Counted from the stretch's first letter, positions 6,222 through 16,466 are shown. The stretch is 64,000 nucleotides of DNA from an uncultured Clostridia bacterium (GCA_944393575.1 CALYAP010000014.1:2819-66818), one strand, 5' to 3'. Program-made: numbers and translations. The notes: generated by a model not told the origin, from the letters alone.

Positions 6222-7508
6222 TTGGAAAATATTATTTGCCATATTGATGTTAATAGCGCTTTTCTTTCTTGGACCGCAGTAGATCGGCTGCATAGATTAC
6301 CTGATTCTATCGATATCAGAGAGACTCCTGCGGTGATCGGTGGAGACCAGCAAACGCGGCGTGGTATTGTTCTGGCTAGCAGTATTGTGGCCAAATCCTA
6401 TGGAGTTAAAACTGGCGAACCACTTTTTCAAGCATTACATAAATGCCCGCATTTAGCTATTTATGCCCCTGACTATGAGCTCTATGTGCATTGTTCTGCC
6501 CGATTAATGGATTTACTGCAGAAGGTAGCGCCAGTTGTCGAGCAGTATTCCATTGATGAGGCTTGGATCGATTTGACTGGTACTGATAAATTATATGGGG
6601 ATCCGGTACGTGTCGCTACACTGCTGAAAGACCGTATCCGCGATGAATTGGGCTTTACTGTCAATATTGGTATCTCGACTAATAAACTGTTAGCTAAGAT
6701 GGCCAGCGATTTTCTGAAACCAGACCGTGTTCATACTTTATTCCCGGATGAATTAGCTGCAAAATTATGGCCCTTGCCAGTAGGCAAGCTGTTTTTTGTC
6801 GGTCCGGCTACAGAGAAAAAATTGCTTGCTATGGGTATTTTAACCATCGGTGACTTGGCGAAAGCTGATGTTCGTCATTTACGCTCACGCCTGCATAAGC
6901 ATGGCGAGATCATTTGGCATTATGCTAATGGCCGCTGTTTTGATGTGGTAGCTAGTCAAGCTTCCTTGAATAAAGGGTATGGTAATTCTACCACCACTGC
7001 TTTGGATATTATCGATATTACCGCTGCCCATAAGGTATTGCTATCACTGAGCGAGACTGTGGGGGCCAGAATGCGACGGGACAACCAGTATGGTTCTTGT
7101 TTGACGCTTCACTTGCGTAGTAGCCAATTTCACGACTTTTCTCATCAATTGCAATTAGCCTATCCAACTAATTTGACCTTAGAGATATATCAGGCCGCCT
7201 GCTTGGCCTTGAATCAATTATGGGATAAGCATACGCCTTTGAGACAGCTGGGTATTTATATGAGTAAGGTCGATCATTATGGTATAAGACAAGGTAGCTT
7301 ATTTACTGATGATAATTATACTAAATTATCGCAAGTCGATAAAACCGTAGATAAAATAAGGGAAAAGTTTGGCAGCGATGCTATTTTCCGGGCCTGTTTG
7401 GCAGAAAAGAACATTAGGCCAATGAGTGGCGGCCCTCTCTCTGATCCCTTCCGGCAGCGGTCGCGATCTTCTGATAATCGTTCTTTGACTAATGATATTA
7501 AGAAATAA
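6222..7508 (+). CDS. dinB: DNA polymerase IV (Y-family translesion polymerase)
   Basis: MENIICHIDVNSAF aligns with MxKIIHVDMDxFF; fingers/palm/little-finger order. I chose the TTG at 6222 as the start. Confidence 0.9.
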   Translation: MENIICHIDVNSAFLSWTAVDRLHRLPDSIDIRETPAVIGGDQQTRRGIVLASSIVAKSYGVKTGEPLFQALHKCPHLAIYAPDYELYVHCSARLMDLLQKVAPVVEQYSIDEAWIDLTGTDKLYGDPVRVATLLKDRIRDELGFTVNIGISTNKLLAKMASDFLKPDRVHTLFPDELAAKLWPLPVGKLFFVGPATEKKLLAMGILTIGDLAKADVRHLRSRLHKHGEIIWHYANGRCFDVVASQASLNKGYGNSTTTALDIIDITAAHKVLLSLSETVGARMRRDNQYGSCLTLHLRSSQFHDFSHQLQLAYPTNLTLEIYQAACLALNQLWDKHTPLRQLGIYMSKVDHYGIRQGSLFTDDNYTKLSQVDKTVDKIREKFGSDAIFRACLAEKNIRPMSGGPLSDPFRQRSRSSDNRSLTNDIKK

Positions 7509-7820
7509 TTGAGCAAAGACGAAAAAAGACAGCTGTTAAGGCACCATCCGTAAGAAAGGTGCACTAAGACTTTTGTATATCAAATTAAAATTGTTGTGTT
7601 TTACCGGTGTAGCCTTTGGTTATGCCGTTTTTTCTTTGCTGCGTTCCAGTTCCGCTAAATGCTCTTGGAGTGATTCTTCCATTTCGAGTTTTCTTTCCTA
7701 TTCAGTTGTTGCTCTCTAAAAAGAGTATTTTATGTCCTACCAGATCAGAGATTATTTGTCAAGTTGCGTATAGACAGGCAAAAGTAAGGGCATACTAAAT
7801 AATTTTCCCTTCCGTAAATC

Positions 7821-7844
7821 GTGATATATTGCTATATAGATCAC
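7821..7844. promoter_or_regulatory. inverted repeat GTGAT-N14-ATCAC with internal palindrome CTATATAG; candidate operator upstream of the flavodoxin-fold operon
   Basis: Seen in sequence; ~270 bp upstream of 8115. Confidence 0.3.
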
Positions 7845-8114
7845 AATTTGTTTTATTCTCATAATATCCTCTCAACAATCCCTATTCCCTGTCGCATAAA
7901 GCGTCATACATACTTTTTACACATATTTAACCGAAAGCGGGTAGTTGCTTTATGCTGCACATTATATAATCAAAATGGAATATTGTCTTTGTGATAAGTT
8001 AAAATGCGAGACGCTTTTGGGGCCTTTTCATCACAAACGTTTCGACAAACCAGACCGCTATGTTTTCGGTAAGAATGGCGTTAAAAAGTTATTTTAAAAG
8101 GAGAAGCTGGTATA

Positions 8115-8611
8115 TGAAGGTGATAATCCACGATCTTAGAGAAGGGGAGGCTCTTTTTCTGGGAAAATCGGATAAGGATTCGGTTGTCATTCATGCGAAC
8201 AATCAGTATGCTCCCTGCTGTGGCTGTTTTAAGTGTTGGCTGAAGAACGCCGGTTTTTGCATAATGAAGGATTCTTTGCAGCACATTGGAGCGCTCATTG
8301 GCCAGAGTGATCCGCTGATCATCGTCAGCCAGTGCTGTTATGGTGGGTATAGCAGCCCTGTCAAGGCTATCTTGGATCGTGCGATTGGGGAGTCTCTCCC
8401 GTTTTTTACCTGGCGGGGCGGGCAAACTCACCACATTAGCCGTTATCCCCATCGGAAGTTGCTGCGTGTTTATTTTTATGGGGAATGCACGAAATTTGAA
8501 GAGGAGATAGCCAAAGAGGTTGTCGAGCGCAACCGTCTGAATCTGGATTATGAGGAAGCGGATGTGGTTTTCTTCAAAAATATCGAACAGATAAAGGAGG
8601 CCAGCTTATGA
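8115..8611 (+). CDS. Isf-like flavodoxin-fold protein with compact Cys motif (CCGCFKCx7C) but lacking the N-terminal FMN phosphate-binding loop
   Basis: APCCGCFKCWLKNAGFC followed by DPLIIVSQCCYGGYSSPVKAILDRAIG resembles the Isf / NADPH-dependent FMN reductase fold. RBS AAAGGAGAAG 7 nt upstream; ATGA overlap with the next gene. Confidence 0.55.
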
Positions 8612-9351
8612 ATCTTCTAATCTTGAATGCAAGTCCCAAGAAAAAGGGTGGCGCCTCCCGATTTTTCTCGGGTTTATTCCGGCTGTTTCTGCCGGGCATC
8701 CGAAAAAAAGTGGTATCCCTTAGCTGTCAACAAGATTTTCAGCGAGTACTGGAACTATTGCCCGGCATGGATGTGGTATGCCTTTTCGTCCCTCTTTATG
8801 TAGATGGCCTTCCGTCCCATATAGTGGAATTTCTCATCCAAGCGGAGGGATACTGTAAAAATCATCCTTGCCAGTTCCGATTGTATGTACTTGCCAATAA
8901 CGGTTTTGTCGAAGGAAAACAAAATCGACCCGCTCTAAATATGCTTCAGGCGTGGTGTGAAAGGGCAGAAATCACTTGGGGTGGCGGAATCGGAATTGGC
9001 GGCGGGGTGATGCTCCAGGTATTGGGGATCATTTACCCCATCCTGATTGGAATCATCCTGTTGCAAATGGCGTTATCCCTTTGCAGCATCGGCACCATTT
9101 CAGGCGAATTATGGCGTTCTTTCGTCATCCAGATGTTAACATGGCTTTTTCTCAATAGCGGCATGTTGTGGTGTATGGCACGTCTTTCGTCAGCTATCCG
9201 TAGGGAGCGAGTATTGCCCAACCAATTTACGCGGGTCATGATACCCTCTTGGCTGTTTATCCCCATCGCGGACGTATTTATGATTTTATCTTCTCTCTTT
9301 CAAGGCCGCTTTCTTTTCGCACTTTTGCAGCAGGACAAATGGCATAGTTAA
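8608..9351 (+). CDS. NAD(P)H-dependent FMN reductase-like flavodoxin-fold domain fused to a C-terminal multi-TM membrane anchor
   Basis: LILNASPKKKGGASRFF phosphate-loop-like N-terminus and VVCLFVPLYVDGLPSHIVEFL; C-terminal ~100 aa form hydrophobic helices. Confidence 0.55.
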   Translation: MNLLILNASPKKKGGASRFFSGLFRLFLPGIRKKVVSLSCQQDFQRVLELLPGMDVVCLFVPLYVDGLPSHIVEFLIQAEGYCKNHPCQFRLYVLANNGFVEGKQNRPALNMLQAWCERAEITWGGGIGIGGGVMLQVLGIIYPILIGIILLQMALSLCSIGTISGELWRSFVIQMLTWLFLNSGMLWCMARLSSAIRRERVLPNQFTRVMIPSWLFIPIADVFMILSSLFQGRFLFALLQQDKWHS

Positions 9352-9364
9352 TAGGAGGATAGTT

Positions 9365-9910
9365 ATGGAGCATATCATTGTCTACGGCAGCCATTATGGA
9401 AGCACCCGCCGATATGCGGAAAAACTGTCTGAACAAACCGATATTCCGGCGGTTAGTTATAAACAAATGCCAGATCTTTCCGATATAAAAACTATTATCT
9501 ATTTGGGTGGATTGTATGCTGGCGGCGTCCTGGGATTGGCAAAAACCTTGCGGGGCCTCTCCTTGCATGGGGGACAAACGTTGATCATCGTCACAGTGGG
9601 TTTGGCTGACCCCAAAGAACCGGAAAATCGAGAAAATATTCGAGTATCTCTTCAAAGACGGCTTCCGACAGAACTGTTTTGTCGGACGAAAATTTTTCAT
9701 CTTCGAGGGGGTATTGATTACCAGAACCTGAACGTCGGACACCGCACGATAATGGCATTACTGTACCAGTCTGTTTGCAAGACGTCTTGTGAAAAGCAAA
9801 CCGCAGAGAATCGGGCATTTATAGAAACTTATGGAAAACAGGTGGATTTTACAGATTTCCGTGCGTTGCAACCGATTATTGAGGAAATACAGGGGAAACG
9901 ATATGAATAA
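9365..9910 (+). CDS. flavodoxin-domain protein (HemG-like / Flavodoxin_5-type)
   Basis: MEHIIVYGSHYGSTRRYAEKL and IIYLGGLYAGG pattern matches the long-chain flavodoxin/HemG-like family; RBS TAGGAGGA. Confidence 0.6.
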   Translation: MEHIIVYGSHYGSTRRYAEKLSEQTDIPAVSYKQMPDLSDIKTIIYLGGLYAGGVLGLAKTLRGLSLHGGQTLIIVTVGLADPKEPENRENIRVSLQRRLPTELFCRTKIFHLRGGIDYQNLNVGHRTIMALLYQSVCKTSCEKQTAENRAFIETYGKQVDFTDFRALQPIIEEIQGKRYE

Positions 9911-10712
9911 AACCTTTAAAAATATACTGAAAATCCTTCTAATCGGTCTTATCACCACTATCGTCCGCATCATCGGGCAACTTTCTATCCCAGCTGGCGA
10001 GCAGACAGTTCTGGAGCCTAGTGTTTTCGCACAAAACGGTACCATGCCACTGGCTTTTACTGTCTATGGGATTTTCGCTTACTCACTGATTGCTTCGTTG
10101 TTCCTGCTCATCCGGAACCGGTTGGGCGGAAAGCTGATTTTACAGGGTCTGAAATACGGCCTTTCCTGCTGTGTTGTGTGGATTGTTTATCTTTTAGAAC
10201 CTTTACCCCATGTAGCGGTCATTGATCGGATTACTTACCCAGTGGCTGATAGCTTGGCTTTGATTGTTATGGGTTTGCTGCTTGGATGGCTATTTGGAAA
10301 ACCCAAATATTCAGCAGGCCTGCAGAAAACTGCATTTCCTGTCCTTCCAGTGCTGACCGTGACTGCCTGCTTCTTCGCCGGGCGGATGATACAATATTTT
10401 ATCTTTGGCATTTACTCTTCTTTTGATGAGAAACCATTGGAAACGGTACTGTGGTGTCTGTTGACAGGTCTTGCAATCTCCTGTGTGATGTCATGGCTGA
10501 ATCTTTATATTAGCAACGGAAATAGGGTAAAGAGGGCAATGATTTTGGGCTGCCTTTTGTTTGGGGTGGATTTGATTCTCTTCAATTTCTTTATGCCATT
10601 AGTGTTTGATGCAGACATCTCCGATCTGATCCTCCGAAGCTTAATCGACATCCTGGCAGTGACTCTCGGATGTCTGTCATTCTCGAATAAGCGTAATGCC
10701 GTTGAGCTGTAA
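9903..10712 (+). CDS. uncharacterised polytopic membrane protein (~7 TM)
   Basis: ATGA overlap with the upstream flavodoxin gene; hydrophobic throughout; no family recognised. Confidence 0.5.
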   Translation: MNKTFKNILKILLIGLITTIVRIIGQLSIPAGEQTVLEPSVFAQNGTMPLAFTVYGIFAYSLIASLFLLIRNRLGGKLILQGLKYGLSCCVVWIVYLLEPLPHVAVIDRITYPVADSLALIVMGLLLGWLFGKPKYSAGLQKTAFPVLPVLTVTACFFAGRMIQYFIFGIYSSFDEKPLETVLWCLLTGLAISCVMSWLNLYISNGNRVKRAMILGCLLFGVDLILFNFFMPLVFDADISDLILRSLIDILAVTLGCLSFSNKRNAVEL

Positions 10713-10726
10713 GGAAGGGGAACTGG

Positions 10727-11917
10727 ATGCAGGAAAAACGAAGTATTCGCTTTGGGAAATGGGTGCTTAAGGTTGTGGTATCTTATGCGGTGTTTATTAT
10801 CATCGGCCTGCTATTCTCCCTTGTCCCGGCCAGTCGTCTTGGATTGTCTGAAGAAATGTTTTTCAACCTTCGGATGTTTTTCATGCTCTTTGGCCCGATC
10901 TATCTCACCCTGATCGTCAAAATTATTTTGACCTTTATTCCTGCCATAAAAAAGCAGACAAAAGATATCGCCGAAAAAAGCAGGGGAGTTTTGTTTACCA
11001 TCACGGCACTGCTGCTATTTGCTAACCTATCCAATGCGCAGACGGTCTCCGACTTTACAACTGGATATGTCCAGGGCAAAGGATTGCGGAATCTGGAAAA
11101 AAGTAAACGGTATTCCCTGAAAGGCAAGCGTTTTCTAAATGTCTTTCTGCCGGTGGGGTTCTATTTGCTGGTTTTAGAACTGTTGACGCTCATCGTCTGT
11201 ATTGTCGTTTTTGCACCTCTTTCACAGATTGCCAGCCATGCCTTTATTCTTACCATTGCTTTGACCGCCTTGCTGTTGCTTTTGATTCCGCTTATCCTAT
11301 CCTTAATTTCTGGTTATCAGGGAGACAAGGCCGTATATAAAGAAAGGCTCGCACAGGAAAAGCAAGCTGCTGTCCAGTCAGATGTCCGGGTGCTGGAAAC
11401 CGACCCAGTTTGCCGGAAGCGGTATCTCCTGCTGCCAAAAATATTGACACTGTTAGTTTGTCCTGGCGTTTGCTTGATTTCTGGACTTGTACTTTCTCTT
11501 ACCAAGAACGCTCAGGATCTTTTGACCGTCCAGCTATTGAGGAGGCCATTTTTGGTGTTGATGGCTGTCGCCGTTTTCTCCTTTATCCCTCTGCTGATGT
11601 ATTGGGTCAACTGCTCCGGAACATCCTTGGTACAGCGGGTTTATCTTGAACAGAACCAGCTGTATTATACCGGTTACAGTGGCAGCATGGAGGAACGTAG
11701 GGAATTCACCTTTACACTGCTTCAACTGGAGAGCTATCGTGTTGGGAAAAGAGCCATCCGCATCCGAGGGCAGTTTACCAAAAAGACAAAGGATTCTTAC
11801 GCTACCAATAAAAAAGGCCCGTTCACCAAAACATTGTGGCTCCCTCGAACCTTCACGTTGGAACAGGAACAGGCCCTGTTGCAATTTTTACATGATAAAG
11901 CAGCTCATGTTCATTGA
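10727..11917 (+). CDS. uncharacterised membrane protein with N-terminal TM bundle and C-terminal soluble (possibly bacterial PH-like) domain
   Basis: RBS GGAAGGGGAA; multiple TM segments; C-terminal 90 aa are hydrophilic and K/R-rich. Confidence 0.5.
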   Translation: MQEKRSIRFGKWVLKVVVSYAVFIIIGLLFSLVPASRLGLSEEMFFNLRMFFMLFGPIYLTLIVKIILTFIPAIKKQTKDIAEKSRGVLFTITALLLFANLSNAQTVSDFTTGYVQGKGLRNLEKSKRYSLKGKRFLNVFLPVGFYLLVLELLTLIVCIVVFAPLSQIASHAFILTIALTALLLLLIPLILSLISGYQGDKAVYKERLAQEKQAAVQSDVRVLETDPVCRKRYLLLPKILTLLVCPGVCLISGLVLSLTKNAQDLLTVQLLRRPFLVLMAVAVFSFIPLLMYWVNCSGTSLVQRVYLEQNQLYYTGYSGSMEERREFTFTLLQLESYRVGKRAIRIRGQFTKKTKDSYATNKKGPFTKTLWLPRTFTLEQEQALLQFLHDKAAHVH

Positions 11918-12076
11918 CCGTTTTTTACTAGCTATACAAGAAATAAAGGCATAACGACACATAAAAAAGCAATCACTGTGCTGGAAGGCATACATTTCTT
12001 TACTAATTTAATGGATAAATTTTGATGATATTTTATTGTTTCCGACGTATTTCATGAATAGGAGGTGAGTTTGATG

Positions 12077-12253
12077 TACAAAACGGTGGTTGTCAAATAT
12101 TCTCCTAAGGCAAAGGAAATGGCCGTCAGAGTAGAGGAAACGGCCAACAAAATGGAACAGGACGGGTTTGAACTGGTTTCCTGCTCTATCACACCTTCTT
12201 CCAAAGGAATCCTGGTATTCAAAAAATCTGGTGAACTGGCGCTAGAAAAATGA
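12077..12253 (+). CDS. DUF4177-like mini-protein (58 aa)
   Basis: RBS AGGAGGTGA; MYKTVVVKY...DGFELVSCS...ILVFKK pattern recalled for DUF4177. Confidence 0.45.
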   Translation, partial: YKTVVVKYSPKAKEMAVRVEETANKMEQDGFELVSCSITPSSKGILVFKKSGELALEK

Positions 12254-12270
12254 GTCTTTCTTGTCGCAAA

Positions 12271-12315
12271 GAAAAAAGCACTTAGAAGCGAATGGTTCTA
12301 AGTGCTTTTGTTTTT
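12271..12315. terminator. bidirectional rho-independent terminator
   Basis: A6-agcacttagaa-loop-ttctaagtgct-T9. Confidence 0.8.
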
Positions 12316-13217
12316 ATGGTATTCAGAGCAGCGTCTTGTTTGGCCTTTGCCTTTTCTAAATCCTCAAAATCTCCTAAGTCGGTCAGTTGAACTTCCGATG
12401 CGTCTACAGTGAGCAGCACAAGCTGTCACAGCCTTATTTTTATAGCCGATTTTTATTTTCAGAAGCGGTAACCAAAAAATGCTGCTGCCATACATTGTTT
12501 CGTAGCTGATTCAGCTTTTCTCATTGGTCAGTTCTTCAACTTTTTGGATAATATTATAAACATGGCTTCTTCTCGGAGACACAGAAAGATATAAAAACCG
12601 GTCTTTGTCAGCAGTACATACGCTTTACGGATGTGAATATCAATCCCACCAGCCGGAGCAGATATTCATCGAGAATCAGGAATAGACACAATAGAGAAAA
12701 GGGCAAATAAACTATTTGGTTTGTCCGCTCTATATATTTGATTGAGAAATAGTACTATACATCTATATTGACAGCGGTAGAACTGGGTTTCAGGTTGATT
12801 TCTGAGCGCTATGAGTTGATCTCAGAGAGCTCTGAGCACAGTAGCGTGATCCACGCCAGCAACAAGTATTTCAGCCACTGGAGCGAGCCGCTCAGTGACA
12901 ATATACTGAGCCCTGAGCTCCAGGATAGTCTGCTTTTCCATGCTCATGTAGTGAAGCATTTATCGGTTGTGGAACCGTGTTAAGGCCAGTGCCCAGACGG
13001 TTCTGCCGACCAAAATTCTAGCAGCTGGCTGACTGGATGCTAGATTTGCGACGTTGCCAAGTGTTGTTTTGATTCCGGCGGTTGGGGTATCTTCTACATG
13101 GTATTTGAAGCTTTTTCATTCCAGCGTTGGCAATAGAAAGAGTAAACCCACTCACCCCATTTGGGTGGGTATGCGTGAGTGGGAAGATAAAAACAAAATA
13201 TTGCATCATAGAAAACA

Positions 13218-13257
13218 AGACGGGCAGAGTTTGAAAACTCTACCCGTCTTTATTATC
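13218..13257 (+). terminator. rho-independent terminator ending an unannotated, apparently non-coding, plus-strand transcript
   Basis: agacgggcagagtt / aactctacccgtct stem followed by TTTATTAT. Confidence 0.55.
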
Positions 13258-13384
13258 GGTAATTCTCCAATATGATTGCTTTTCCTATAAAACCAATTAT
13301 TCCGGCTGATTCCAAAAGCCGAAAAGAGAAAGCTTCCTTGCAAAGTGTCTCCCGTAAAGGCTGTCTTTTTTGCTTTTCCCCGGG

Positions 13385-13414
13385 GTATAAATGTTTGGGT
13401 TTACGGTAATAATT
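13385..13414 (+). promoter_or_regulatory. forespore sigma-F/sigma-G-type promoter for sigG (GTATA-15-GGTAATAATT)
   Basis: -35 GTATA 13385-13389, 15-nt spacer, -10 GGTAATAATT matches GGnnAnAnTn. Confidence 0.65.
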
Positions 13415-13448
13415 GATTCATAAGCGCCAACTCCGAGGAGTGAATAGC

Positions 13449-14219
13449 TTGCTTAATAAAGTGGAGATCTGCGGTGTTAATACCGCTAAGTTGCCAGTAT
13501 TACCAAATGACAGAATAAATGAATTGTTTGTAGAGATGCAAAAGGGGAATAGAGAGGCCCGGGAGGAGCTGATTGCCGGCAACCTTCGTCTGGTTTTGAG
13601 CGTTATCCAAAGGTTTAATAATAGAGGTGAAAATGCCGATGACCTTTTTCAGGTTGGCTGCATTGGTTTGATAAAAGCAATCGATAATTTTGATCTAAGC
13701 CAAGGCGTACGCCTTTCTACCTACGCTGTGCCGATGATCATTGGTGAGATCCGCCGCTATTTGCGTGATAATAATGCGATTCGTGTTTCCCGCTCTATGC
13801 GTGATATCGCCTACCGTGCGCTCCAGGCCAGAGACGCTTTTGTCAATGAGCATGGTAAGGAACCAACGATCGATGAAATAGCTAAAAAAATAGATTTGCC
13901 GCGCGAAGATGTTATTTTTGCTTTGGACGCAATAGCTGACCCGATATCCTTATTTGAGCCTATCAGCAATGAGAGTGGCGACCCAGTATACATGATGGAT
14001 ATGGTTGGCGATGAAAAATATGGCGAAAAGACCTGGCTGGAATCCCTGAATATCCGGGAAGGATTGTCCAAATTAGGCGAACGGGAGAAAAAGATTATCA
14101 ATCTACGCTTTTTTGTCGGCAAAACGCAGATGGAAGTGGCAGAAGAGATCGGTATTTCTCAGGCGCAGGTGTCACGCTTGGAAAAAGGCGCTTTGATGCA
14201 GCTGCGTAAGTATATTTAA
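13449..14219 (+). CDS. sigG: sporulation sigma factor sigma-G
   Basis: Near-identity over long stretches to B. subtilis SigG as recalled (NKVEICGV, GNLRLVLSVIQRFNNRGE, FQVGCIGL, MIIGEIRRYLRDNN, QMEVAEEIGISQAQVSRLEK). TTG start after a GAGGAG RBS; the track start at 13413 is too long. Confidence 0.93.
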   Translation: MLNKVEICGVNTAKLPVLPNDRINELFVEMQKGNREAREELIAGNLRLVLSVIQRFNNRGENADDLFQVGCIGLIKAIDNFDLSQGVRLSTYAVPMIIGEIRRYLRDNNAIRVSRSMRDIAYRALQARDAFVNEHGKEPTIDEIAKKIDLPREDVIFALDAIADPISLFEPISNESGDPVYMMDMVGDEKYGEKTWLESLNIREGLSKLGEREKKIINLRFFVGKTQMEVAEEIGISQAQVSRLEKGALMQLRKYI

Positions 14220-14319
14220 GCGATGCGGAAATTATTGAAGAAAATTTGCAGTTCTATTTATGAATTCATTTTTTTGCGTGGTTATTTAGAACACGAACAG
14301 CAAGAAGGAGATAAAATAG

Positions 14320-14928
14320 ATGACCAAAACAAAAGTATTTAAGTGGTTAGCGGTAGCTTTGATAATTTTACTCTCGGCCTTATCTTTTTATATTTTTGGT
14401 GATGATAGCCAGGTATTATTTGCTAATGCCAGCGCCAACGAGAAGCCGTTGCGTCTTCATGTTTTAGCTAATAGTGATAGCACAGAAGATCAACAGTTAA
14501 AGCTGCAAGTAAGGGATTTTATTATTACTTTATTAAAGCCGCAGTTAGCTGATATTGAGAATAAAGAAGCAGCTATGAATCTGATTGAGGCAAATATTCC
14601 TCAGTTGACTGAGGCCTGTAATGCGTTCTTGAACGGTAAGGCTGATTATCAGGCTACTTTAGCTCTAGAGAGGGCGGATTTTCCTGAGATAAATTATGAT
14701 GGAATGGTTTTTGCCTCGGGGGAATATGATGCTCTGCGAATCATTCTTGGCGAAGGGGAAGGAAAGAATTGGTGGTGTGTGCTTTTTCCACCGCTATGCT
14801 TTGTTGATCTAGCTTCTGAATATGATCCTGATTTGGCTTTAAGCGTTTGGTCTTCTTATACGGGAGAGCAATCAGATAATGGCGTGCAGATCAAATGGAA
14901 GCTCTCCGAATTGTTTGGCGGCAAATAG
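14320..14928 (+). CDS. spoIIR: stage II sporulation protein R
   Basis: Signal/TM N-terminus, RLHVLANSDS motif, CVLFPPLCF. Confidence 0.85.
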   Translation: MTKTKVFKWLAVALIILLSALSFYIFGDDSQVLFANASANEKPLRLHVLANSDSTEDQQLKLQVRDFIITLLKPQLADIENKEAAMNLIEANIPQLTEACNAFLNGKADYQATLALERADFPEINYDGMVFASGEYDALRIILGEGEGKNWWCVLFPPLCFVDLASEYDPDLALSVWSSYTGEQSDNGVQIKWKLSELFGGK

Positions 14929-14935
14929 TAGTCTT

Positions 14936-15274
14936 TTATAATTCCCATTCCTCCCAGTCATATTCTTTATGTTTGGCAGGTTCGATATCCTGTACTCTGG
15001 TATCGACAATATCTGTTACAATCGGCTTTGAGCGTTCATCTCCAATCAGGATGACGTCAAGGCCGATTTTTTTGATTTTATCCCAGGGAATGATAGTCTC
15101 TTCGCTGCGCACGAAAAAGCCTAAAAAACGGCTTTCACCAGGGATAATAACCGCATCGATAGAACCAGCATTGATATCTATTTCGATATCATAAACATAT
15201 CCTAGTTTTTTCCCATCTATTTCATTGATCACATCTTTGCGACGAAGTTCGGAAATAAGGAACATCTTTATCAC
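14936..15274 (-). CDS. PRC-barrel sporulation protein, YlmC/YmxH family
   Basis: ~110 aa, KIGLDVILIGD PRC-barrel signature, located between spoIIR and nrdR. Confidence 0.8.
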   Translation of the reverse strand: MIKMFLISELRRKDVINEIDGKKLGYVYDIEIDINAGSIDAVIIPGESRFLGFFVRSEETIIPWDKIKKIGLDVILIGDERSKPIVTDIVDTRVQDIEPAKHKEYDWEEWEL

Positions 15275-15469
15275 CTCTTAGCTTTTATATATGCGAATAA
15301 TTGCGGTATCATACCCTAAAACAGTAATTGATAGGAGAATAATTAAAACATATTTATTTCTTAAAAAAGCTTGCAATGCTTTATCTGGTGTTTTATAATA
15401 AAAAATATACTAGATGAAGTATAGCTTGAGCATTAATCTAATCATATATCTACGGTTAGGGGGATATTT

Positions 15470-15949
15470 ATGAGATGCGTTTTTTGTGGACATGAGGACT
15501 CTAAGGTTCTGGATTCCCGTCCGGTAGAAGAAGGTCGGAGCATTCGCCGCCGCAGAGAGTGCCTGGCTTGCGGTAAAAGATTTACTACCTATGAAAGGGT
15601 AGAGGAGCTGCCGCTGATCGTTGTCAAGTCCGATAACCGCCGAGAAATGTTTGATGCTAATAAAATTTTGAACGGTTTGATCAAGGCTTGTGATAAACGA
15701 AGTGTCCCTATCACTGTGCTGGAATCGATCGTTAATGATATTGAAAGAGAGCTGCGCAATAACCTAGAACGTGAGGTTTCTTCCAAGGAGATCGGCGAAC
15801 TAGTAATGGCTCATTTGCGTGGCGTTGATCAGGTAGCGTATGTTCGTTTTGCCAGTGTTTATCGTAAGTTTGAAGATGTCTCTACCTTTATAGACGAAAT
15901 CAAAGCGCTGCAAAAGGAACTGCAGACCACTAAAGCAGAAAATAATTAG
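15470..15949 (+). CDS. nrdR: transcriptional repressor NrdR
   Basis: MRCVFCGHEDSKVLDSR...CLACGKRFTTYE zinc ribbon plus ATP-cone. Confidence 0.95.
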   Translation: MRCVFCGHEDSKVLDSRPVEEGRSIRRRRECLACGKRFTTYERVEELPLIVVKSDNRREMFDANKILNGLIKACDKRSVPITVLESIVNDIERELRNNLEREVSSKEIGELVMAHLRGVDQVAYVRFASVYRKFEDVSTFIDEIKALQKELQTTKAENN

Positions 15950-15972
15950 ACCTTTGTTAATATTATTTTAGC

Positions 15973-16007
15973 AACGCTTCTTGACTGCCAAGAAGCGTTT
16001 TATTTCT
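15973..16007 (+). terminator. rho-independent terminator after nrdR
   Basis: aacgcttctt-gactgcc-aagaagcgtt-TTATTTCT. Confidence 0.8.
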
Positions 16008-16157
16008 GTGAGCTATTTTATGCTTTTTGGCAGGTGATAAGAAGGCAGCAGCAGAAATATTAACTGTTATAGATCTTGTGGTCAACTTTATTGTCGATAA
16101 ATAAATATATGATTTAACGGTAAATTTTAGCTGCTAAGATGGCAAGGAGGTTCGAAG

Positions 16158-16466
16158 ATGCGGATAGAGGAACACCCGATACTCAAGTTTGACCGAGGGA
16201 AAAAGATTACCTTCTATTATAATGGCGAAAAAATAGAAGGCTATGAAAATGAAACTGTTGCTGAGGCCCTGCATGCAGCAGGCATTAGGCGTTTAGGCTA
16301 TTCTCCTGAATTACATCGCCCCCGGGGACTTTTTTGCGCGATAGGTAATTGCTCAAGTTGTTTTATGACTGTTAATGGCGAGCCTAATGTGCGAGTTTGT
16401 GTCTTGAAATGCGCAGAGGGAATGCAAGTAGAGGAGCAGCAGTCCAAGGGGGTAGTAAAAATATGA
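16158..16466 (+). CDS. [2Fe-2S]-binding small subunit (HcnA / opine-oxidase small-subunit type)
   Basis: ~100 aa with C-x-C...C Cys cluster (CAIGNCSSC...VC); RBS AAGGAGG. Confidence 0.75.
   Translation: MRIEEHPILKFDRGKKITFYYNGEKIEGYENETVAEALHAAGIRRLGYSPELHRPRGLFCAIGNCSSCFMTVNGEPNVRVCVLKCAEGMQVEEQQSKGVVKI

Follow-up and report, generated by a model that had tools for sequence, protein, structure and literature searches.

What occupies the long gene-free stretch directly upstream of the sporulation gene sigG in an uncultured Clostridia bacterium? In the window, i.e., the whole stretch of 64,000 nucleotides (64 kb) that was analysed, this gap extends from 12254 to 13448 (1195 nt) and lies between a small gene of 59 aa on the left (12074-12253, plus strand) and sigG on the right (13449-14219, plus strand), the latter beginning with a TTG start codon preceded by GAGGAG. 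The original prediction identified sigG correctly, as its product shares 68% identity with B. subtilis SigG (locus L073) and carries the Pfam sigma-70 domains. Gene callers left the gap empty on ~19 contigs of the same species (human-gut metagenomes, 99.1-99.7% identical), bar a minus-strand ORF of 40-45 aa, and a self-similarity search of the gap against the rest of the 64-kb window found no second copy, so that the gap is not a repeated element here. Our analysis indicates that the interval 12316-13384 is very probably a mosaic of remnants, left by decayed genes and mobile elements, without a dedicated function. Approximately three-quarters of it could be assigned to relics by homology, and the features of the region are as follows.

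7536-13359, no strand: species-specific 5.8-kb island that holds the whole interval (comparison with L100)
12274-12309, bidirectional in form: terminator hairpin after the 59-aa gene (terminator scan of both strands, inverted repeat, fold z-score)
12300-12407, minus strand: 3'-terminal remnant of a CotH-family gene, 36 codons long (tblastn)
12484-12644, minus strand: PadR-family pseudogene, residues 20-73 of ~130 (tblastn and DNA match)
12645-12773, no strand: AT-rich stretch, by its position probably where padR once had its 5' end and promoter
12774-13032, plus strand: broken, 5'-truncated istB (IS21 helper ATPase), C-terminal third (Pfam, tblastn, HMMER, profile)
13033-13132, plus strand: IS21 right terminal inverted repeat region (alignment with L107 and a Sporomusa element)
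13133-13214, no strand: spacer with a hairpin that the original prediction called striking (inverted-repeat scan)
13217-13250, minus strand: intrinsic terminator of a deleted tnpV (L117 alignment and terminator scan)
13265-13352, minus strand: relic tnpV ribosome-binding site, leader and promoter (blastn)
13360-13448, plus strand: conserved chromosomal sequence before sigG (homology to L100, L101 and L102 begins at 13360)

The boundaries of the island emerged from a comparison with related species. Relatives were picked by a SigG protein search as a graded series and their contigs were fetched; a scan of GTDB representatives with SigG gave distant species only, at no more than 74% identity among the matches listed. 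In L100, whose SigG is 95% identical, dinB is followed by an intact hairpin, which reads AAAAAGGCAGC-tgatggaa-GCTGTCTTTTTT, and then by sigG, with a spacer of 139 nt, and in L100, L101 and L102 alike a terminator hairpin stands directly before the conserved sigG promoter. The window carries the left arm of the dinB terminator, AAAAAAGACAGC, at 7522-7533, after the dinB stop codon, and the ancestral right arm with its T-tract, GCTGTCTTTTTT, at 13360-13371. The two hairpin arms are thus split, which indicates that the insertion of the island took place in the loop of this terminator. The sequence to the right of the junction retains a sigG promoter-like element, GTATA-N15-GGTAATAAT, at 13385-13413 and the ribosome-binding site GAGGAG at 13436-13441. 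The island comprises six genes and the gene-free interval; homologues of these genes were found in none of L100-L105, and a search of the left island spacer against phages returned nothing. None of the interval is present in L100, L101, L102 and L105 (SigG 84-95% identical); in the three other than L100 (SigG 91%, 89% and 84%), sigG is preceded by a gene for cyanate lyase, by a flavodoxin-like gene or by bipA, and the spacers measure 90-290 nt. In the alignment with related genomes that had been proposed as a check, the interval was missing in sister species and DNA homology started only at 13360. At the level of sequence, homology shows what the relics are, where the island ends and that sister species lack it.

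Diverged copies of the island were recovered by a metagenome scan with its 396-aa protein, which identified 16 loci, one of them from the same species (L112, 99% identity) and the other 15 at 60-82% protein identity. In three of these copies (L117-L119), the minus strand beyond the 59-aa gene carries, in this order, intact DUF2812 and PadR genes, a spacer, a hairpin, tnpV, its leader and a relaxase. Mobilisable transposons of Clostridia of the Tn4451/Tn6104 type encode the large serine recombinase TnpX, the Xis-like TnpV and a MobA/MobL relaxase (PMC3158075). The gene set of L117-L119 is of this type, with the relaxase of L117 belonging to the MobA/MobL family (PF03389, E=7e-57), the 375-nt tnpV frameshifted and the recombinase not seen. 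In L115, L122 and L127, a convergent CotH-family gene follows the 59-aa gene instead, and in L114 a truncated tnpV is joined straight to the 396-aa gene. The region has eroded differently in each lineage.

These copies allowed us to name the leftmost relics. The minus strand at 12407-12300 matches the ORF at 5273-5842 of L122 with 75% identity across 36 aa (E=4e-12, tblastn), and in that locus the adjoining ORF is CotH (PF08757, E=4e-28); the same CotH-family gene adjoins the 59-aa gene in L115 and L127, and the DNA homology to all three loci ends at window 12404-12407. This tail is the 45-aa minus-strand ORF predicted by some gene callers, and the terminator at 12274-12309 (fold z -2.7 on the plus strand and -3.9 on the minus strand) once sat between convergent genes. 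The next relic matches the 130-aa protein of L117, a PadR regulator (PF03551, E=6e-16) that adjoins a DUF2812 gene (PF11193, E=5e-32), through two collinear tblastn HSPs of 63% and 57% identity (E=3e-12), and at the DNA level 12485-12626 is 71% identical to L117 6367-6509. It carries a frameshift near 12565 plus one in-frame stop; it fell below threshold in the six-frame Pfam scan, and an intact winged-helix ORF is not present. The winged-helix residues 20-73 of PadR are still recognisable, and an intact PadR-DUF2812 pair occupies the same position in L117-L119, whereas the window gene is frameshifted, interrupted by the stop and devoid of its C-terminal half and of DUF2812, both of which are deleted.

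The middle of the interval derives from an IS21-family insertion sequence. Elements of this family carry the transposase gene istA, the AAA+ helper gene istB and terminal inverted repeats (PMC10122671, PMC11208146), the repeats being made of L1/L2 and R1/R2 units (PMC10122671). The original prediction found no credible ORF in the region, which holds in that a functional gene is absent, but the 71-aa ORF that it set aside (12768-12980) is a recognisable IstB fragment and not noise: it matches the Pfam family IstB_IS21 (PF01695, E=3.3e-8, 33.8 bits versus a cut-off of 24.1) over profile positions 176-224 of 238. By tblastn, the relic is 45% identical to the annotated "IS21-like element helper ATPase IstB" of Sporomusa sphaeroides pSSP59. 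A HMMER search of 1.84 billion representatives gave 34 matches at E<=1e-3; the nine that were fetched are all IstB-like, the closest being IstB fragments with 60-67% identity. We built a custom IstB profile from eight of the fetched sequences, and it aligned through nodes 164-217 to 12774-12956 (E=4e-16) and through nodes 218-243, in a shifted frame, as far as 13023. The reading frame is damaged by a 21-nt tandem duplication at 12794-12835, encoding LISERYE/LISESSE, and by an 11-nt deletion and frameshift near 12955, and it terminates at a stop codon at 13030-13032. A possible continuation of istB homology further upstream, across the Walker motifs (12552-12773), was considered and discarded, as Pfam gave no extension and the IstB profile scored the stretch no better than other frames and dinucleotide shuffles; the Walker A/B region is not detectable in the relic.

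Downstream of istB, a repeat at 13072-13087 (ATTCCGGCGGTTGGGG) is followed by another at 13118-13132 (ATTCCAGCGTTGGCA), which forms the terminus and ends in ...CA; the ends of IS21 elements read 5'-TG...CA-3'. The DNA from 12817 to 13132 aligns with L107 402-717 (E=3e-20), which is another truncated copy. In the Sporomusa IS21-like element, the left end carries TGTCACCGCCGGG and the right end TGTCAACGCCGGA, and ATTCCAGCGTTGGCA corresponds to the right terminus of that element, ...CCGGCGTTGACA, the inverted partner of which lies upstream of istA. The two repeats correspond to the R2/R1 layout of IS21 terminal repeats. The assignment to the IS21 family is therefore supported both by the C-terminal third of IstB, with its Pfam match and database relatives, and by a right end in ...GTTGGCA with two repeats that aligns with the annotated Sporomusa end. 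In contrast to complete members, only ~360 nt are left of a ~2.2-kb element, istA, the left end and the Walker motifs are missing, and istB bears the duplication and frameshift, leaving a dead solo right end. Sporomusa IstA, compared by tblastn with the region and with the entire window, gave nothing above chance, the six-frame Pfam scan found no istA, and a search for the IS21 left end in the 64-kb window returned chance-level matches only. The IS21 piece is present in none of the related island copies.

The right-hand relics can be traced to tnpV. The segment 13265-13352 is 82% identical to a phage record, MT839450.1 (L103; E=6e-11, blastn); in that record the matched stretch directly precedes a TnpV gene on the minus strand (PF14198, E=1e-46) and adjoins the start of the chromosomal gene coaX. 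The leader is 78-82% identical to its counterparts in L109, L114 and L117-L119 (82% over 13269-13353 in the last three), and it precedes tnpV in the IMG/VR contig L109 as well; the segment also includes a degraded version of the hairpin found ahead of the leader in intact elements. Further left, the hairpin of L117-L119 is 86% identical to window 13215-13265, and in L117 the matching sequence (6724-6774, 86% identity) directly follows the 375-nt tnpV ORF, which identifies the hairpin at 13217-13250 as the tnpV terminator. In L103, L110 and L111, tnpV likewise ends with a stop codon followed by a hairpin. The last tnpV codons survive at 13261-13253: on the minus strand the window reads ...ATTGGAG-AAT TAC CGA TAA TAA-hairpin, as compared to ...ATT TAC CGA TGA-hairpin in L117. 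The ribosome-binding site is thus joined to the final three codons (Tyr-Arg-stop), from which it follows that a deletion of ~370 nt removed the tnpV ORF. TnpV proteins have no match in the window, and the leader has none among plasmids by blastn. The leader and terminator, at 78-86% identity to tnpV-bearing loci, the position of tnpV next to a MobA/MobL relaxase in L117 and the sharp ends of the island at a specific site all resemble Tn4451/Tn6104-type elements. The window differs from them in that the tnpV ORF is absent, a relaxase is not found in the window and a recombinase is not among the island ORFs. Membership of the Tn4451 family proper is not established, since TnpX was seen in none of the fetched loci.

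Taken together, these identities suggest how the interval may have arisen. It is the eroded right-hand part of the 5.8-kb island, which came to lie within the loop of the ancestral dinB terminator. An IS21-family element would have landed in the spacer between padR and tnpV and would afterwards have been stripped of istA and of its left end, and the tnpV ORF would have been taken out by one clean deletion, leaving its terminator, last three codons and leader behind. This order of events and the lack of a present-day function are inferred. At least five broken genes or mobile elements have left fragments here, and the result is an ordinary kind of bacterial genome debris.

Approximately 290 nt of the interval (12408-12483, 12645-12773 and 13133-13214) had no homologue by blastn against plasmids and phages, by six-frame Pfam and PHROGs scans or by alignment with L107 and L117. 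For the gap as a whole, the six-frame Pfam and PHROGs scans yielded no further protein family, PHROGs giving nothing meaningful; blastn found no match among plasmids, and among phages only the 88-nt tnpV leader, while an exact-pattern scan of IMG/VR gave 0 matches. We also compared all stop-free six-frame pieces, concatenated, with a set of 5.8 billion proteins, which returned nothing at E<=10 in an insensitive word-index search; by the same insensitive method, the reconstructed 81-aa IstB C-terminus shared words with one candidate and had no match. Both searches were insensitive because of the word index, and the later full HMMER scan did find the IstB relatives; their empty results show that the relics are very diverged.

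We then considered variation within the species. A point against the reading as debris is that every one of the ~14 distinct same-species contigs, from different human-gut samples, carries the gap at 99% identity, so that it is fixed; 27 sites are variable in 12316-13352 across 14 sequences, corresponding to 26/kb. The nine SNPs in the 71-aa ORF are split 2/3/4 over codon positions 1, 2 and 3, and the ORF is thus without coding constraint. The pooled density of fourfold-degenerate SNPs in neighbouring genes is 64/kb versus 26/kb in the gap (odds ratio 0.39, p=1e-4). This difference was not read as purifying selection on the gap or as a sign of function: fourfold densities of single genes range from 23 to 103/kb, and the IS21 relic, a certain pseudogene, is reduced about as much. 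The left part without a homologue, at 26/kb, is by our reading no lower than the IS21 pseudogene at 33/kb. Among the gap segments before the junction, the lowest density is that of the hairpin segment 13135-13264, at 15/kb, with only 2 SNPs.

The hairpins that drew attention to the locus are real. All of the repeats named in the original prediction were recovered in an inverted-repeat scan: the CTGGAGC...GCTCCAG repeat corresponds to 12878-12896/12905-12923 with 74% complementarity, the arms at 13147-13155/13175-13183 form a perfect 9-bp stem with a 19-nt loop, and the 16-nt arms at 13217-13232/13235-13250 are 94% complementary. The TCTGAG...CTCAGA repeat (12801-12826) arises from the 21-nt tandem duplication (12794-12814/12815-12835), and both it and the CTGGAGC/GCTCCAG repeat fall within the istB relic. 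The hairpin at 13147-13183 has no counterpart in L117, L107 or any collection searched. In sliding 120-nt windows compared with dinucleotide shuffles, the fold z-score is strongly negative at 12220-12380, where the terminator of the 59-aa gene lies, reaches -2 to -3.6 across 12820-13060, and falls across 13100-13340 to -5 (plus strand) and -7.8 (minus strand). The description of the region as hairpin-rich is thus accurate at three spots and does not apply to 12300-12820, where z is ~0. Apart from the one at 13147-13183, the hairpins are by-products of the debris, namely the tnpV terminator and, within istB, the 21-nt duplication and palindromic codons. The terminator itself had been described as a canonical plus-strand terminator at 13218-13257. 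Our scan assigns it to the minus strand, where 13217-13250 meets the definition of a Rho-independent terminator with 15 pairs, seven of them GC, and the tail GTTTTCTATG; on the plus strand the tail is TTTATTATC, with an interrupted T-tract, and the hairpin passes, as a borderline case, only with a shortened stem. It is at best bidirectional.

Debris may nevertheless acquire a use, and it is tempting to speculate that the tnpV terminator was co-opted as a cis-acting insulator that guards the forespore-specific sigG promoter from transcription of the island. As the island split the dinB terminator, the relic tnpV terminator would now block island transcription in its place. In L100, L101 and L102 a terminator precedes the sigG promoter, and in the window the corresponding hairpin has lost its left arm; the tnpV hairpin is strong, bidirectional in form and situated 135 nt upstream of the sigG promoter, within the segment of lowest SNP density. 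Against this, the U-tract is interrupted on the strand concerned, and the argument is one from position alone. We consider such a role conceivable though rather unlikely; it is compatible with the debris explanation and not an alternative to it. A stronger claim, that this terminator does insulate the sigG promoter or that a plus-strand RNA of ~480 nt, derived from IS21 and spanning 12742-12769 to the hairpin, has a regulatory role, appears improbable.

The original prediction of a structured plus-strand transcript of up to ~500 nt fared poorly. In its most explicit form, this reading posits a structured non-coding RNA of ~480 nt whose transcription would begin at a promoter-like site (12742-12769) and stop at the hairpin 13217-13250. 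The site, a sigma-70-like TTGAGA-16-TATATT on the plus strand, agrees at 10 of 12 positions in a promoter scan, the plus strand folds well both across 12820-13060 and at 13140-13260 (z -5), and the stretch is fixed within the species. However, promoter-like sites are no more frequent than in shuffled sequence (2 found versus 2.9 expected), the body of the transcript is an istB fragment and an IS21 terminal repeat, a piece missing from the sister species as well as from all related island copies, and the hairpin at its end belongs to the minus-strand tnpV. The folded pieces are the istB duplication and the tnpV terminator. The suggested Rfam check was borne out as negative: a cmscan of the whole window with Rfam 15 gave 0 matches at gathering thresholds, so that no family among OLE, raiA, ROOL, 6S, RNase P, tmRNA, SRP or the riboswitches reaches threshold, and in a permissive scan of 12200-13450 the best hit scored 27 bits versus 60 required, the hits being to unrelated eukaryotic and organellar families at chance level. 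Compensatory base changes were not found, the related copies sharing only the pseudogene and terminator pieces; within the species, SNPs at 12883 and 12919 disrupt the CTGGAGC/GCTCCAG stem without compensation. The locus resembles the large non-coding RNAs of Firmicutes (OLE, raiA, ROOL, 6S) in its long gene-free stretch, its stable hairpins and its terminator-like end. It differs from them in having no covariance-model match and no conservation outside the species, and in consisting of pseudogenes. We regard a dedicated structured RNA as very improbable, even if a plus-strand read-through RNA may cross the IS21 relic.

The same relics could be taken for a mobile element that still functions, be it an active IS21, a miniature non-autonomous IS21 derivative or the live end of a Tn4451-like transposon. 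The right terminal inverted repeat retains its two repeats and its ...CA terminus, and the edges of the island are sharp and lie within a hairpin loop. However, there is neither an istA nor a left terminal repeat nor a second copy in the 64-kb window, istB is truncated, internally duplicated and frameshifted, and the island is devoid of a recombinase, a relaxase and a tnpV ORF. A functional element is highly improbable.

The patchwork of relics also bears on the suggestion that the gap is decayed DNA in place of spoIIGA-sigE. The DNA is indeed decayed, but the genes concerned are a CotH-family tail, padR, istB and tnpV. The operon usually precedes sigG in Firmicutes, and among 78 sigG loci that extend at least 1.8 kb upstream of the gene (74 from more distant Firmicutes, four from related species, together with the window) sigE ends less than 600 nt upstream of sigG in 58. 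In the four related species that were fetched (SigG 84-95%), sigE is not upstream of sigG, and neither sigE nor spoIIGA lies beside it in any of them; their upstream genes are dinB, cyanate lyase, the flavodoxin-like gene or bipA. sigE is absent from the whole 64-kb window, the six-frame stop-free pieces of the gap gave nothing by tblastn against 80 sigE-sigG loci, and B. subtilis SigE and SpoIIGA match nothing in the window but SigG itself. With a clade that lacks sigE by sigG, no similarity in the gap and some three-quarters of the stretch belonging to other relics, we reject a decayed spoIIGA-sigE operon as having next to no probability.

These findings have several implications. The linkage of sigG to spoIIGA-sigE has been lost in this clade. 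A gene-free, hairpin-bearing stretch beside a key sporulation gene resembles a candidate for a large RNA, and here it is explained by the erosion of mobile DNA. For annotation, the gain lies in labels for the istB/IS21 right end, padR, the CotH-family tail and the tnpV leader and terminator, as well as in the definition of the island. As a minor point, sigG may now be protected by a terminator that outlasted the transposon gene to which it belonged.

The ancestral terminator hairpin of dinB holds in its loop a 5.8-kb species-specific island, which is placed exactly at this site, between dinB and sigG:

7522-7535, terminator half flanking the island on the dinB side
7536-13359, island, encoding an FMN_red-like protein, a 247-aa protein, a Flavodoxin_5 protein and proteins of 269, 396 and 59 aa
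13360-13371, terminator half flanking the island on the sigG side

The 269-aa and 396-aa proteins gave no family matches. The ends of the island are sharp, suggesting that its integration or excision was site-specific. In the sister species represented by locus L100, the hairpin is intact and the spacing between dinB and sigG is just 139 nt.

Synteny breaks upstream of sigG, where each of five species has a different neighbour. Of the 78 loci examined, most of them from more distant Firmicutes, 58 have spoIIGA-sigE ahead of sigG, whereas this clade (the window and the fetched loci L100-L105) lacks the arrangement. What has been kept at sigG is a promoter-like GTATA-N15-GGTAATAAT (window 13385-13413), and spoIIR-ylmC-nrdR downstream of it are likewise conserved.

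We compared within-species variation in the gene-free gap ahead of sigG (12316-13352) with that at fourfold-degenerate sites of neighbouring genes, drawn from window 9365-16466. The SNP density in the gap was 26/kb versus 64/kb for the pooled sites (p=1e-4), a value that nevertheless lies inside the per-gene fourfold range of 23-103/kb; mutation bias, recombination tracts and weak constraint are all candidate causes of the lower density. The gap also carries an IS21 right end with an istB fragment; among the database relatives of this IstB subfamily, many are likewise short or degenerate fragments (L107 329-717; L108; P0122, P0123, P0128, P0139). The L107 copy is 5'-truncated, with its break no more than ~25 nt from the truncation point of the window copy, and its context differs, the neighbours being a phage-like gene and genes for polysaccharide synthesis. 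The near-equal truncation could be a coincidence or could reflect a recurrent breakpoint leaving solo IS21 right ends.

A second stretch without genes, of ~520 nt, occupies the left end of the island (7536-8059). A search of the phage collection, the sole public one covered, gave no match to it and no family could be assigned; it is probably further debris. Within it, 7795-8048 shares homology with the left flank of diverged island copies on metagenome contigs L122 and L118, and 7795-8050 with the sequence adjoining the left tnpV relic of contigs L117-L119. A TnpV gene (PF14198) is also present in MT839450.1, a 4280-bp GenBank record labelled 'UNVERIFIED: Bacteriophage sp.'; at its end begins a chromosomal gene similar to coaX (type III pantothenate kinase), and the record has the look of a junction between a bacterial mobile element and the chromosome, not of a phage. 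In L117-L119, tnpV relics lie on either side of the island genes (960-1202 and 6813-7112) with a MobA/MobL relaxase past the right-hand one, suggesting that the entire island gene block moved as cargo of a mobilisable element.
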